Shown piece after piece: positions 23,137 through 28,170 of a DNA stretch of 64,000 bases (positions within the stretch are counted from its first letter, which is position 1; the number at the start of each line of letters is the position of its first letter). A model generated the notes under the pieces. It searched no databases and had not been told where the DNA came from. It was given only the letters and a program-made list of their open reading frames with translations. A program made the position numbers and the translations under genes. This DNA is from Escherichia phage RB49. The DNA lies in the sequence record NC_005066.1. One strand, written 5' to 3'.

Positions 23137-23328
23137 TTAGATTCCGGCGATCCTGCATAGAGTTCTTGTATTAGCGCCAATAAGGATAGCATTAACGACA
23201 ACCATTCCCCAATCAACCCACGGATTATTATAAATGCTAAATCCGTTTGCTAGGCCAAATACAAGCATTCCGGTACACATACTCAGAGCAATAATCAACA
23301 TCATGGTAAAACCAAATGCAAATCTCAT
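23137..23328 (-). CDS. small hydrophobic membrane protein (63 aa)
   Basis: Track ORF; two predicted TM helices. Confidence 0.4.
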   Translation of the reverse strand: MRFAFGFTMMLIIALSMCTGMLVFGLANGFSIYNNPWVDWGMVVVNAILIGANTRTLCRIAGI

Positions 23329-23329
23329 A

Positions 23330-23551
23330 TTATTTTCCTTTTCTCTGTTTACGTTTATAAAAGTAATACATTACCTCATCACGTCCGGTGATCCAACATG
23401 CTAGGGCGGTAAACAGGTTTACAATTCCCAACACACCTACTGACGCGGCGCTGTCAACAGACATAGGAACAGTAAAGGCCATAGCTAACATAGCAACGCC
23501 ACAAATGACATTAAGCACCATTATAATAAGACCGAAGAAAACCATTGTCAA
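23330..23551 (-). CDS. small hydrophobic membrane protein (73 aa)
   Basis: Track ORF; TM helices. Confidence 0.4.
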   Translation of the reverse strand: MTMVFFGLIIMVLNVICGVAMLAMAFTVPMSVDSAASVGVLGIVNLFTALACWITGRDEVMYYFYKRKQRKGK

Positions 23552-23766
23552 TCCTCACAAATAAGAAAACCAACAATCACGCCAGTGATAAGACATGATG
23601 CACCGCTAATAAGACAACCAGCGCCAAGTGATTCCCACCAGATCAGAGAAGCGACAATAACGAAAATTCCCCAGACTACCGCAATCACAACATAGGCAAG
23701 GGTCGCCCAAAACATATATTTGTTCATAATAAACCACATTCGCCAAACAAATAAGAAAAAAGCCAT
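23548..23766 (-). CDS. small hydrophobic membrane protein (72 aa)
   Basis: Track ORF; TM helices. Confidence 0.4.
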   Translation of the reverse strand: MAFFLFVWRMWFIMNKYMFWATLAYVVIAVVWGIFVIVASLIWWESLGAGCLISGASCLITGVIVGFLICED

Positions 23767-23912
23767 ATCAACAGAAACGAGGCAATTGATCCGGCAAACA
23801 AAATGATATTAGAGAATCCACCGTCTACCCAGGCAACAAAACAGAATACGCTAGTATAGAAGCATAAACCCATTACAAAGCATACTATAAGCAACCATAG
23901 ATAAAACGTCAT
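23724..23912 (-). CDS. small hydrophobic membrane protein (62 aa)
   Basis: Track ORF; TM helices. Confidence 0.35.
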   Translation of the reverse strand: MTFYLWLLIVCFVMGLCFYTSVFCFVAWVDGGFSNIILFAGSIASFLLIWLFSYLFGECGLL

Positions 23913-24134
23913 AGAAAGTCCTCCAGCGAGATAAATTAGTGAGGGTAGTGGAATGTACTACCCGCTTTGTTAATCAACGCAGAGCTTCTTCTAGCGAGAT
24001 CCCAAACCATCCACAAACAACGCCCATACAGACAGCTACAAGAAGATTCATTCTCTCTTTAGGGATCATTGCAATCATAACAACAACCATACAGAAAGCC
24101 ATTACCATTGAAGTTAACATTTGTTCAACCATTA

Positions 24135-24473
24135 TCACACCTTTAAAGTCATAGACGCATAAACATTAATGCCAGGCCAGTTAGGATCGCAATTATACTC
24201 AACATCCCACAAATAAAGCGGTTTAGATGTATCAGCCAAGTTTTTAAAATCTTCTACCCACATTTCAAGGCTATATGATGGATAAACTAGGCTATCATAT
24301 CCGCCGTAACGTTGGCCTACTGGTCGGTCAGTAAAAACTACCTCAAGATCCGGTAATTCTTTTTCAAGGATAACCGCCAGCGCATAAATAAGACGGTCTT
24401 CCTTGTTACGCTGCCGAAGGACCGTTGTCAGTTGGTTTTTCTGGTTCACTAGCAAGCACCTCCACATTTTCAC
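24135..24473 (-). CDS. hypothetical protein (112 aa; start uncertain)
   Basis: Track ORF; overlaps the upstream ORF. Confidence 0.4.
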   Translation of the reverse strand: MKMWRCLLVNQKNQLTTVLRQRNKEDRLIYALAVILEKELPDLEVVFTDRPVGQRYGGYDSLVYPSYSLEMWVEDFKNLADTSKPLYLWDVEYNCDPNWPGINVYASMTLKV

Positions 24474-24726
24474 AGAATGAAATTTTCACAGACACAATTT
24501 TACCATAAGTGAAGAATGAATATACATTATCGATATATTCAACGTCACCTACAATCACATCAAACTGCGGATCAGCAACCGCCGCAACATATTCTACCAG
24601 TTCATCAAGAGAATGCAACTTAATTTCATCAATTCGGCTGTATTTGGTTGCATCTTTGATTTTAAAACCACGTTCTTTCAGCTTATCAATTAGAATTTCA
24701 CGCGGAGTTTCAAACAGTTTGCTCAT
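24406..24726 (-). CDS. hypothetical protein (106 aa)
   Basis: GAGGATTATATT-ATG start context. Confidence 0.45.
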   Translation of the reverse strand: MSKLFETPREILIDKLKERGFKIKDATKYSRIDEIKLHSLDELVEYVAAVADPQFDVIVGDVEYIDNVYSFFTYGKIVSVKISFCENVEVLASEPEKPTDNGPSAA

Positions 24727-24747
24727 AATATAATCCTCACATTAAAT

Positions 24748-24948
24748 CTAAAATTTGTTAACGACGAATTGCATAATTAGACTAATCACAAACATTGCAA
24801 ACCAAGTATAAATGCAACAGATAAAAGCTACATACAATTCAATCTGGTCAGAGAATACACCGGGTAAAAGCATTAGCAAAATAACAACAGTAAAGACGCT
24901 AGCGATACCCGCAACAAAACCAATATCATTTTTACTAATCGTCATCAA
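24748..24948 (-). CDS. small hydrophobic membrane protein (66 aa)
   Basis: Track ORF; TM helices. Confidence 0.4.
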   Translation of the reverse strand: MMTISKNDIGFVAGIASVFTVVILLMLLPGVFSDQIELYVAFICCIYTWFAMFVISLIMQFVVNKF

Positions 24949-25154
24949 GTCACCGTTTTGTAAAGAAACACAATAAAATCCAAGACAAGAAAGACAGTGT
25001 AAATGATCATCGTCAAGACAGTAAACACTGTCAGATTTTCATCGTTAGTTAATTCATAGTCGCCCATCCATACAATCACAAGATATAGCATTGAAAGAAT
25101 GGAAGCGCCTACGAAGTTGAAAAACATATTCTTGAGCGTCATATTAACAACCAT
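24945..25154 (-). CDS. small hydrophobic membrane protein (69 aa)
   Basis: Track ORF; TM helices. Confidence 0.4.
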   Translation of the reverse strand: MVVNMTLKNMFFNFVGASILSMLYLVIVWMGDYELTNDENLTVFTVLTMIIYTVFLVLDFIVFLYKTVT

Positions 25155-25326
25155 CGCGGCTTAAGTCAATAGCAATTGCATACAGCATAATGAATATGCT
25201 AGCAGATCCAAGAATCAATGCACCGTCACATTTTGAAACTCGCTCATCAAAATGTAACATTATCCATCCGAGGATGTTAAAGGCGCATAACGCGCCTATA
25301 TTATCTAACCAATTAATCTTTTTCAT
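25144..25326 (-). CDS. small hydrophobic membrane protein (60 aa)
   Basis: Track ORF; TM helices. Confidence 0.35.
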   Translation of the reverse strand: MKKINWLDNIGALCAFNILGWIMLHFDERVSKCDGALILGSASIFIMLYAIAIDLSRDGC

Positions 25327-25334
25327 AATATACC

Positions 25335-26610: not shown

Positions 26611-26685
26611 AATTTGATTCTCCGTTTAAGAAAGTGTGTTTCGTTTCGATGGGTGTATTATGCTATAGGCAGGATCTGGTGTCAA
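26611..26685 (-). promoter_or_regulatory. early promoter cassette (TTGACA-17-CATAAT)
   Basis: Conserved leader CATCGAAACGAAACAC; GGAGAATCAAA RBS. Confidence 0.55.
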
Positions 26686-26711
26686 CAACTTTTTTAAAAA
26701 AATTTTAGGCA

Positions 26712-26739
26712 ATAAAAAAGCCACTCCGAAGAGTGGCTT
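26712..26739 (-). terminator. rho-independent terminator
   Basis: Hairpin gccactc-cgaa-gagtggc with T-run on the minus strand. Confidence 0.6.
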
Positions 26740-26888
26740 ATAGGGAAGGTAGCGAATCTTCCTTGTCTCCAACCTGCTAGCGGCCTAGCAAGTGAATGCT
26801 TTAGCGTACCGGATCGCCCACATACGCTGTAATAAATGCGGCTAGGTGACGTCCAAATCATTCTAACCGCGCTGTCTTTAGTTCACTA

Positions 26889-27107
26889 TTATTTATATCG
26901 CTTTCTCTCGCGACGTTTTTGGTCTTCTTCCTTGATAGAGTTAAATGCATCAAAAAGACACATGGCACTAATAATAAACATAACCGTATTTTCTACGATA
27001 TCCCACGGCTTCGCATCAGTACAGATCCCCCAAACGGTAAGAAATGCAAATAAGGCAGAAGAGATCACAAGCATGATACTTGCTAAGATATAAAAAGTCA
27101 TTTTCAT
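26889..27107 (-). CDS. small hydrophobic membrane protein (72 aa)
   Basis: TM helices; basic C-terminus. Confidence 0.4.
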   Translation of the reverse strand: MKMTFYILASIMLVISSALFAFLTVWGICTDAKPWDIVENTVMFIISAMCLFDAFNSIKEEDQKRRERKRYK

Positions 27108-27298
27108 GGTTTTACCTCAATTCTTCGATATTCATCACACATCCACACAGTAAGCAAGAATCCCAGCACATAAGCAACAAAATACGTTAATGCTTCTTCT
27201 GGTTCGGTGCTATGCGCCATCATCAGACCAGCGAGAAAGGTCTTAACAATTACATTTAAAATAATTAGCCACGCAAATAATTTCATAGTTTGCCCCAT
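27104..27298 (-). CDS. small hydrophobic membrane protein (64 aa)
   Basis: TM helices. Confidence 0.4.
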   Translation of the reverse strand: MGQTMKLFAWLIILNVIVKTFLAGLMMAHSTEPEEALTYFVAYVLGFLLTVWMCDEYRRIEVKP

Positions 27299-27522
27299 TT
27301 CGGACGAGTATTTTCAAACTTATACATTACGTAACAATCTCGAATCATCCACGTAACAAGAGCACCAGTCAACACAGACAATACGCAGAAGAAGTAAAAC
27401 GGTCCGGTTGCATTATCAACATGAGCAAGCCAGGTAAAGAAAACACATGCTAAGAATGTAAAGAACATCATAAAGCACAAGAAAGCGAAATATTTTATAC
27501 TACTCATAGCGCCACCATACAA
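27283..27522 (-). CDS. small hydrophobic membrane protein (79 aa)
   Basis: TM helices. Confidence 0.4.
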   Translation of the reverse strand: MYGGAMSSIKYFAFLCFMMFFTFLACVFFTWLAHVDNATGPFYFFCVLSVLTGALVTWMIRDCYVMYKFENTRPKWGKL

Positions 27523-27610
27523 CAGATCATAAGAAACCCCAACGCAATAAGAATTGCGTCAAATTTAGTGAACTCCGGTCCACCTATCAACATCATTCGT
27601 TCTATTTCGT

Positions 27611-27853
27611 TCATAGCGTACAAAGCCATTTAAAAGCACCACATAAAGCGAGCAGAATACTAGGTATAAACGAGACCAAAACAAGTTTGCAAAAATCATC
27701 TAAGGTAACACCGGAATAGCTACCTACTGTAACAACACCGATCATCAGACACAGAAAGAAAACAAATGCAATCATAAACAAAGTATTGCTAAACAGTTTA
27801 GTGATCATTAGACACCCCACGACGATCAATTTCAAAAACTTTTTTATCATCAA
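27611..27853 (-). CDS. small hydrophobic membrane protein (80 aa)
   Basis: TM helices. Confidence 0.4.
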   Translation of the reverse strand: MMIKKFLKLIVVGCLMITKLFSNTLFMIAFVFFLCLMIGVVTVGSYSGVTLDDFCKLVLVSFIPSILLALCGAFKWLCTL

Positions 27854-28001
27854 CGAAGCATGTCACAACTGCCTCGTTGACTTCCGCAAATTGTTGTGTC
27901 ACCCACTTAAGGTCAGAGCGAAACAATGTTCTATTAATAACAAATGTTTTACCGCTCTTATCCTTACCCATAAATTTTGCTTTACCCATATCCAATTCCA
28001 T
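27798..28001 (-). CDS. small hypothetical protein (67 aa)
   Basis: Track ORF. Confidence 0.35.
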   Translation of the reverse strand: MELDMGKAKFMGKDKSGKTFVINRTLFRSDLKWVTQQFAEVNEAVVTCFVDDKKVFEIDRRGVSNDH

Positions 28002-28011
28002 ATTATCACCT

Positions 28012-28170
28012 TATTTGCTAATCGCTAAACCCAATCCGAAGAGAGCACCCGATGCTACAGTATACCCGAAAGTTTCAAAGGCAGTAAAGATATCTAAGCC
28101 ACCAGCTAACAGAGTTGCAGTAAACAGAGTACCAGCTACGAACATAAAAGTTTTACCGATGAATTTCATT
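28012..28170 (-). CDS. small Gly-rich hydrophobic peptide (52 aa), below track cutoff
   Basis: Hand-translated MKFIGKTFMFVAGTLFTATLLAGGLDIFTAFETFGYTVASGALFGLGLAISK; promoter cassette and GGAGAATCAAA RBS upstream. Confidence 0.4.

Follow-up and report, generated by a model that had tools for sequence, protein, structure and literature searches.

Small envelope proteins that decide the outcome of infection are best described in phage T4. Its Imm protein (83 aa) is a small, early, helical protein of the inner membrane with a charged C-terminal tail that acts by binding; the partner is the tape-measure protein gp29, and binding blocks formation of the pore for genome entry, a mode of action that has led to Imm being likened to HK97 gp15 and to colicin immunity proteins (bioRxiv 10.64898/2026.03.06.709160). 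Both kinds are small proteins of the inner membrane and intercept a translocating or pore-forming domain from the side, within the bilayer. The T4 proteins Sp (exclusion) and RI (lysis inhibition) are also small envelope proteins, built as periplasmic soluble domains with a signal peptide or anchor. Here we describe a block of 14 genes for tiny hydrophobic proteins of 36–74 aa (named A1–A5, B1–B3, C1–C5 and D1) at positions 23137–28169 of a 64,000 nt stretch of the genome of Escherichia phage RB49 (NC_005066.1), the whole of which is referred to below as the window. The block proteins are similar in type to Imm, with early timing predicted, but share no sequence similarity with it, and in T4 the imm gene lies between genes 42 and 43. 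Their resemblance to HK97 gp15 and the colicin immunity proteins is architectural only, homology having been checked solely by Pfam, PHROG and NCBIfam scans, which were negative. Unlike Sp and RI, they are almost wholly transmembrane (TM) hairpins; T4 sp is found two genes downstream of dmd, while in Krischvirus an RI orthologue sits elsewhere in the genome and an Sp orthologue was not detected.

A megablast search with positions 22700–28700 matched 59 phage records, 51 of them covering at least 80% of the query and mostly at 96–97.5% identity. All are members of Krischvirus (RB49, Phi1, JSE, GEC-3S and relatives), which places the window in this genus. The minus strand carries every gene of the 23137–28169 stretch. 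An earlier note on this DNA had listed twelve small hydrophobic open reading frames (ORFs), mostly of 60–80 aa. All twelve are present on the minus strand at the positions it gave, save that the last runs from 28011 to 28169 and not from 28012 to 28170; the count itself was too low, as A5 and C4 had been overlooked, and the lengths were those of the longest ORFs. The lengths adopted here use starts backed by PHROG profiles and GenBank annotation, and these are shorter for A2, A3, A5, B1, B2, C2, C3, C4 and C5 (Table 1). GenBank already lists the 14 genes, under the names 'putative membrane protein' or hypothetical protein, and a table of TM predictions for RB49 ORFs appeared in 2006 (PMC1524935). 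What is new is the count of 14, the statistic for their concentration, the absence of detectable paralogy and the evidence for selection, together with a dimorphism of B1, a predicted operon link to dmd and the finding that imm and sp are undetectable by sequence search.

Comparison with 15 relatives (12 Krischviruses with sequenced genomes and three metagenomic contigs of greater divergence) shows that the 14 are real genes under purifying selection that preserves their hydrophobicity. Nearly all frames are intact across the comparators, the exceptions being A4 of Whisky (−1 frameshift at its 3' end), A4 of PHB13 (+3) and B2 of W115 (−1), and 12 of the 14 genes (all but type I B1 and B2) were detected in every one of the 15. 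Thirteen of the 14 genes vary most at the third codon position. Ratios of non-synonymous to synonymous differences (pN/pS), calculated as pooled Nei-Gojobori proportions from genomes that are not independent, range from 0.10 to 0.58 over the 13 genes with an estimate; type I B1 is represented by three unique sequences with no synonymous differences and gives none. The weakest constraint is that on C5 (0.58), a frequently unannotated gene that is nevertheless intact in 15 of 15 comparators. As references, the endolysin gene (0.20) and dmd (0.28) give values similar to those of the small TM genes, and the interspersed soluble genes (ORF108, ORF109, ORF125, DUF7421, 57B and LPD25) lie below them at 0.00–0.12. 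The number of TM segments is kept in every orthologue, and 139 of 144 replacements in TM columns are non-polar, the other five being charged, strongly polar or proline. In a further contig, with a Dmd of 82% identity, the series D1-dmd-C5-C4-C3-C2-C1 is intact and its order unchanged. The frames are very short, and gene callers disagree about them (C4, C5 and A4 are unannotated in several records), as would be expected of chance openings in AT-rich DNA that are not genes at all. This reading has a negligible likelihood and was rejected in view of the codon-position bias, pN/pS below 1, the frames kept open in relatives, the ribosome-binding sites (RBSs) and the tight head-to-tail packing.

The block encodes nearly all of the tiny, very hydrophobic proteins of the genome. 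Small TM genes account for 14 of the 22 small genes in 23137–28169, compared with about 3 of 115 small ORFs elsewhere (Fisher's exact test, p ~4e-11); 'elsewhere' is the rest of the 64 kb window plus about 100 kb of Phi1, and the counts, which come from a uniform crude ORF call and a hydropathy filter, are approximate. Credible cases outside the block are an ORF at 17355–17648 of the window and ORF006.1 and ORF046 of Phi1. The first of these, on the minus strand, specifies a 97 aa protein with two TM segments split by a 40 aa hydrophilic loop, and is the sole other credible case in the window.

Predicted in the earlier note to be almost entirely transmembrane, the tiny proteins are supported as membrane proteins by their hydropathy windows, their grand average of hydropathy (GRAVY) and the conserved number of TM segments. 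GRAVY values range from 0.29 to 1.74, and each protein has one or two Kyte-Doolittle 19-residue windows at or above 1.6. TM segments were called from such windows, with no dedicated topology predictor, and at a slightly lower hydropathy threshold 10 of the 14 proteins are two-TM hairpins. Their loops are 5–17 residues long and hold at most two positive charges (none in 8 of the 10) and one to four acidic residues, and cationic C-terminal tails are present on A2, C1, C2 and C3. With positive charges at the termini and a short acidic or neutral loop, the positive-inside rule suggests an N-in/C-in topology for most of the hairpins. AlphaFold2 models of A1 (helices 2–29 and 36–61; predicted local distance difference test score, pLDDT, 65) and D1 (helices 3–22 and 27–50; pLDDT 70) are both helix-loop-helix. 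The kilobase windows that contain the clusters show a strong A-over-T skew on the plus strand, that is, a T-rich coding strand, which is expected where hydrophobic codons are abundant. A juxtamembrane pattern, W-x(2,3)-RD-x(2)-VMY-x-F, recurs in the tails of A2 and C3, and hhalign pairs the two proteins at 37% identity over 46 columns (P=0.0047), a value that is not significant over 91 comparisons; A2 and C3 could be remote paralogues or could carry a common cytoplasmic binding motif.

Sequence searches show the 14 to be ORFans restricted to the genus and not detectably related to one another. Each matches only its own small, single-genus PHROG of unknown function, and every Pfam match of the 14 falls under the curated cut-off. 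A1, C3 and D1, used as queries against 5.8 billion protein clusters, recovered only Krischvirus-like versions at 82–98% identity, those of A1 all at 89% or more, and an exhaustive HMMER search of 1.84 billion representatives with C3 gave true relatives of at least 96% identity; three additional matches in that search are long repetitive proteins aligned over short hydrophobic stretches only, and were discarded as spurious. A distant blastn search and a tblastn search with B1 found no copy beyond Krischvirus-like phages. PADLOC and NCBIfam returned nothing for the ten proteins scanned (A1–C2). Direct comparison of the 14 with T4 Imm, Sp, 61.1, 61.2, 61.4, e.2–e.4, trna.4 and vs.5 gave no similarity, and none matches the RI families in PHROG or Pfam. 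The expansion of a paralogous family was also considered and rejected, all-versus-all blastp and phmmer scores being below 20 bits and the best hhalign value (P 0.0024) not significant over the 91 pairs. The proposal that the block is an expanded repertoire of Imm, Sp and RI relatives therefore does not hold, none of the 14 resembling these proteins, the holin families or each other.

Close relatives differ in the content of the block. B1 occurs as a type I protein (in the window) and a type II protein (in JSE, MIZ5, phiS, Whisky and metagenomic relatives), which are colinear but only about 35% identical; 46 records have B1 relatives at 95% or more and six at about 34%, with no intermediates, within flanking sequence of about 96% identity. 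B2 is missing in Whisky, phiS and a metagenomic contig (L020). In the divergent relatives, A5, C1, B3, C5 and B2 fall to 66–74% aa identity, compared with 95–100% for the interspersed soluble genes.

Early expression of the block genes, from sigma70-type units, is predicted by consensus matches, on which all promoter and terminator assignments here are based. Five minus-strand sites resemble TTGACA-N17/18-(C/T)A(T/C)AAT at 10–11 of 12 positions and have A/T-rich upstream (UP) elements; their −35 elements start at 28680, 28230, 26685, 26416 and 25732, with stem-loops and terminators alongside, and all five are annotated as promoters in GEC-3S. The exact pattern is found ten times on the minus strand in the early region of the window and once more at 51069, and once on the plus strand. 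From the promoter at 28230, a unit is predicted to run through D1, dmd, C5, C4, C3, C2 and C1, with D1 as its first and C1 as its last gene and with overlaps of 4–11 nt from dmd onwards. A second, from 25732, would comprise LPD25, B3, B2, B1, ORF109, ORF108 and A5, and it probably continues past a hairpin without a U-run into A4, A3, A2, A1 and lys. The sites at 28652–28680, 26657–26685 and 25704–25732 belong to near-identical cassettes that consist of an A/T-rich element, TTGACA-N17-CATAAT and the leader ACACCCATCGAAACGAAACAC; read as ORFs, the three give a recurring pseudo-peptide, 'IIHPSKRNT'. The late motif TATAAATA was not found upstream of any cluster, its sole exact minus-strand copy (26890–26897) lying at the 3' end of C1. 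Late motifs with one mismatch number six, against 8.6 ± 3.2 expected, and the copy near lys sits downstream of A1.

Such promoters have been described in the same phage group as part of promoter(early)-stem-loop (PeSL) cassettes, which mediate the shuffling of ORFans in phi1 and RB49; representative PeSLs from elsewhere in the genome are experimentally strong promoters or terminators, and the PeSL-driven plasticity of the present region has itself been published (Arbiol et al. 2010, PMC2839356). The cassettes of that study share with those seen here a sigma70-consensus promoter, an AT-rich upstream element, a G/C stem-loop and associated ORFans, and they are inserted, deleted or replaced among near-identical genomes, as with the replacement of B1 and the loss of B2. 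The block has the marks of a PeSL-ORFan region: it is a hyperplastic site between vs.8/lys and 57B-57A-1-3, it has flanking cassettes and its ORFans turn over. The membrane nature and the concentration of the ORFans were not addressed by Arbiol et al. (PMC2839356), where 'membrane' refers to ultrafiltration only.

The gene order in Phi1 is vs.6, ORF100, vs.8, the M15 endolysin, the block, 57B, 57A, 1 and 3. In T4 the same flanks enclose denV, ipII, ipIII, e, nudE, e.2–e.8, rnaC/rnaD, eight tRNA genes, segB, trna.2–.4 and ipI, so that the block is the Krischvirus filling of a hyperplastic region syntenic with the T4 interval from e to 57B. T4 e.2, e.3, e.4 and trna.4, in that interval, are likewise predicted membrane proteins. 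They number just four over about 7 kb, however, three being larger (102–130 aa), and they share no sequence similarity with the 14; moreover, the T4 interval has nudE, tRNA genes, rnaC/rnaD and ipI, none of which is found in the Krischvirus block, and scans of the block gave no tRNA and no Rfam family at threshold. In a Slopekvirus with a related M15 endolysin, no small TM genes are found upstream of the endolysin gene. No conserved association between dmd and TM hairpins was seen across T4-like genera (only seven loci were retrieved); in Tequatrovirus, dmd is accompanied by 61.4, sp, 61.2 and 61.1. By their domain matches, three counter-defence-linked genes, for Dmd, Acb1/57B and the LPD25 protein, flank the block or are interleaved with it.

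Genes for lysis are present outside the block. The Phi1 annotation places t (holin, phi1p254), rI (phi1p086), rI.-1, pseT.2, pseT.3 and rIIA/B elsewhere, RB49, Phi1 and JSE have been assigned to T4 spanin families (Kongari et al. 2018), and a Krischvirus pan-genome study lists holin and spanins among the core genes. No gene there is annotated as imm, sp, rIII or ac. Searches by tblastn covered the window and four Phi1 segments (222 kb in total, including about 158 kb of the 164 kb Phi1 genome). T4 Imm gave no match in them at E≤10, and phmmer scores of Imm against the 14 were below 4 bits; the best match of T4 Sp (E=0.07) lies inside gene 41 and is spurious. The positive controls, dmd (1e-14) and 61.1 (1e-12), were recovered.

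Tentatively, and at somewhat less than an even chance, we favor the view that the 14 are independent early inner-membrane binders or blockers that serve phage–phage or phage–host conflict and stand in for imm and sp, rather than parts of the lysis machinery. In the most economical mechanism, each protein would insert into the host inner membrane within minutes of infection and act alone and non-enzymatically, by helix–helix binding to a membrane-embedded target; the binding of gp29 by T4 Imm is the nearest precedent. The likeliest targets would be either the pores by which superinfecting phages deliver their genomes or abortive-infection effectors of the host that act on the membrane, and the block as a whole would be a conflict or exclusion arsenal that substitutes for the missing imm and sp. 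Since Krischvirus has no recognizable imm or sp, exclusion or protection from membrane-acting effectors is the leading guess; the evidence that the genes are real, their concentration, the counter-defence neighbors, the predicted early promoters and the lysis roles filled elsewhere (t, rI and pseT.2/pseT.3) also count in favor of a role in conflict, and the B1 dimorphism, the presence or absence of B2 and the divergence of the TM proteins fit conflict-type evolution. The superinfection exclusion raised in the earlier note survives in this form, in that an early, Imm-like role is plausible given the predicted early promoters, the predicted co-transcription with dmd and the undetectable imm and sp. 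Several points weigh against a role in conflict. No exclusion or immunity protein shows homology to any of the 14, and reasoning from the lack of imm and sp amounts to an argument from a gap. The TM calls rest on Kyte-Doolittle windows and two models of modest confidence. Overlapping genes are explained by genome compaction alone in the early regions of T4-like phages, and faster aa change is expected of small TM proteins constrained mainly by hydrophobicity and is no proof of conflict. A bolder version, in which the block would be a non-homologous, Imm-like 'micro-immunity' arsenal with rapid turnover, possibly arisen de novo from T-rich DNA and shuffled by PeSLs, with one threat per protein, B1 alleles as alternative specificities and the whole jointly replacing imm and sp, is rather unlikely to hold. 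If it did, the threats would be the tape-measure pores of particular competitors and pore-forming abortive-infection effectors of the host.

An explanation that fits almost as well as conflict is that the proteins modulate membrane proteins of the host. Small membrane proteins of E. coli such as AcrZ, MgrB and MgtS tune inner-membrane proteins, and the phage micro-proteins could in the same way tune a host transporter, FtsH, Sec/YidC, or a respiratory or sensor complex for takeover. The anatomy and the predicted early timing would be the same, and small helices with one or two TM segments, without catalytic potential and under purifying selection, suit this role equally; host targets are conserved, however, so that the B1 dimorphism, the presence or absence of B2 and the restriction to one genus are less expected, and the neighbors are counter-defence and not metabolic genes. 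We regard modulation of the host as possible, if doubtful. That the genes are evolutionary by-products, young or fast-turnover ORFs of T-rich hyperplastic DNA that are shuffled by PeSLs and translated with little or no individual function, is improbable. It would account for ORFans whose relatives in the two large searches all lie at about 82% identity or above, for the lack of paralogy, for the loss or frameshifting of some genes in single isolates and for the T-rich coding strand, and PeSL-mediated shuffling of ORFans is documented (PMC2839356), but pN/pS is well below 1 in all 13 estimable genes, hydrophobicity is almost perfectly kept, and 12 of the 14 genes occur in all 15 comparators, with a frameshift or indel of A4 in two isolates. 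A role in lysis control, with some members (cluster A next to the endolysin gene, or A2, C1 and C3) setting the time of M15 endolysin release as holins, pinholins or antiholins, is unlikely, whether for cluster A or for A2 and C1 with their holin-like traits. Holins of class II and pinholins (lambda S, S21) likewise have 60–75 aa, two TM domains and a basic C-terminal tail, features that are not specific to holins but are seen in A2, C1 and C3; C1 also begins M-K-M, like the dual start of lambda S, and A4–A1 lie directly upstream of lys with no intervening terminator, an adjacency that holds for cluster A only. The best Pfam holin matches, of A2 to Phage_holin_3_5 (14.4 bits, cut-off 27, E=0.04) and of C3 to Phage_holin_3_6 (12.7 bits, cut-off 28.4, E=0.14), are weak and, like all others, far under the cut-offs. 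In addition, t, rI and the PseT.3/PseT.2 spanins are core Krischvirus genes located elsewhere, the block promoters are predicted to be early, late motifs are at or below chance, and an early holin would kill the host prematurely. A lysis cassette in which cluster A is driven by a late promoter was looked for and rejected, as no such promoter was found and the only late-like motif near lys is downstream of A1. The holin or antiholin function put forward in the earlier note is accordingly disfavored by the genes present elsewhere and by the lack of a late promoter before any cluster. Membrane-damaging toxins of type I kind, which would depolarize or permeabilize the inner membrane early for host shut-off, are very unlikely. 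The very small size and very high hydrophobicity of the peptides would suit this role, as would the Gly-zipper-like sequence of D1, but early depolarization would deprive the phage of energy, as many as fourteen distinct toxins would duplicate one another, and no match to Hok, TisB, Ldr, Ibs or similar toxins was found (Pfam for all 14; NCBIfam and PADLOC for A1–C2). We file the block proteins, provisionally and by their predicted features, among the small early phage inner-membrane accessory proteins.

Other features of the block and its surroundings were also noted (Table 1). Between C1 and the strong terminator lies a conserved non-coding segment on the minus strand (26712–26897) that extends from TATAAATA in the last codons of C1 to the terminator at 26718–26739. 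It is considered non-coding because indels of 1 and 2 nt disrupt its 55 aa ORF. It shows 94–99.7% identity in 16 relatives, above that of the adjacent C1, and folds at −60 kcal/mol (z=−3.85; none of 200 shuffles as good); one pair in the fold has a compensatory change, and the terminator loop swaps UUCG for GAAA. It belongs to no Rfam family and has no similarity to T4 rnaC/rnaD of the syntenic block. The segment may encode a small late RNA of about 165 nt (candidate positions 26884–26715). A short gene at 26425–26610 (minus strand) specifies a 61 aa DUF7421 protein that is invariant in 15 of 15 Krischvirus comparators, and its nucleotide identity of 72–79% with hypothetical genes of many T1-like siphophages, JMPW2, tonnikala and SH6 among them, implies that phage families have exchanged it.

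Between clusters A and B are the homologues of ORF108 and ORF109 (24135–24726, minus strand), which code for soluble proteins and overlap by 44 nt; their pN/pS of 0.06–0.08 makes them among the most constrained genes of the block, and family scans gave no assignment. Whisky (L004, 3409–3984) and phiS (L005, 2159–2734) carry an additional gene, for a 191 aa protein, between vs.8 and the endolysin gene, which is absent from the window. G5211 has an annotated ORF of the same size at the corresponding position, and in Slopekvirus KLB1 the endolysin gene has a related AP2-domain gene next to it. The sequence of the product, a hypothetical protein in the records, suggests a homing endonuclease of HNH/AP2 type. 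The two phages with this gene also bear type II B1.

Table 1. Positions (in the window) of the 14 small TM genes, of flanking and interleaved genes and of predicted transcription signals.
Feature	Position	Strand	Length (aa)	PHROG	pN/pS	Remarks
lys (endolysin)	22719..23108	-		phrog_465	0.20	M15 L-Ala-D-Glu peptidase (PF13539), no N-terminal TM; 28 nt downstream of A1
A1	23137..23328	-	63	phrog_15016	0.24	Helical hairpin; directly upstream of endolysin gene
A2	23330..23545	-	71	phrog_15232	0.29	2 TM; basic C-terminal tail (+7); GAGGA RBS
A3	23548..23727	-	59	phrog_16151	0.26	2 TM; PHROG begins at residue 14 of the long ORF
A4	23724..23912	-	62	phrog_19354	0.38	2 TM; 4 nt overlap with A3; GGAGGA RBS
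A5	23974..24132	-	52	phrog_16035	0.36	2 TM
B1	24748..24945	-	65	phrog_15379		2 TM; dimorphic locus, type I here
B2	24945..25142	-	65	phrog_21837	0.31	2 TM; acidic loop
B3	25144..25326	-	60	phrog_16425	0.41	1-2 TM
LPD25 protein gene	25335..25661	-	108			Large polyvalent protein-associated domain 25 (PF18840, E=5e-14)
PeSL-type early promoter	25704..25732	-				TTGACA-17-CATAAT, 11/12; predicted for LPD25-B3-B2-B1-ORF109-ORF108-A5
PeSL early promoter	26657..26685	-				Upstream of DUF7421 gene
Intrinsic terminator	26718..26739	-				Strong; ends the predicted dmd/C-cluster unit
C1	26889..27107	-	72	phrog_15168	0.26	2 TM; M-K-M start; basic C-terminal tail (+8)
C2	27104..27286	-	60	phrog_15717	0.25	2 TM; 4 nt overlap on either side
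C3	27283..27507	-	74	phrog_15290	0.10	2 TM; basic C-terminal tail; strongest constraint of the set
C4	27504..27614	-	36	phrog_15282	0.36	Single C-terminal TM
C5	27611..27808	-	65	phrog_17225	0.58	2 TM; 11 nt overlap with dmd stop
dmd	27798..28001	-		phrog_2102	0.28	Antitoxin against RnlA/LsoA-type host toxins (PF17587, 5e-15)
D1	28011..28169	-	52	phrog_16462	0.31	Gly-rich helical hairpin; strong RBS
PeSL-type early promoter	28201..28230	-				TTGACA-18-TAAGAT, G/C stem-loop over spacer and -10; predicted for D1-dmd-C5..C1
PeSL early promoter	28652..28680	-				Upstream of ORF125 homologue
57B	28725..29189	-				Acb1 family phosphodiesterase against cyclic oligonucleotide-based anti-phage signaling (anti-CBASS; PF23474); bounds the block

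Small membrane proteins of phages are a large and mostly uncharacterized class, and the few that are understood (Imm, Sp, RI and HK97 gp15) govern entry into the cell or exit from it. In this case, a well-sampled genus of therapeutic coliphages that lacks a recognizable imm or sp packs nearly all of its tiny membrane proteins into one predicted-early, recombination-prone block. Should they turn out to be ordinary accessory ORFans, little would be gained beyond better annotation. The block offers 14 short, easily cloned candidates, along with a natural pair of B1 alleles, for studying exclusion and resistance to defence in T4-type phages outside the T-even group, and the same candidates could help to tell whether new membrane proteins arise in hyperplastic regions.

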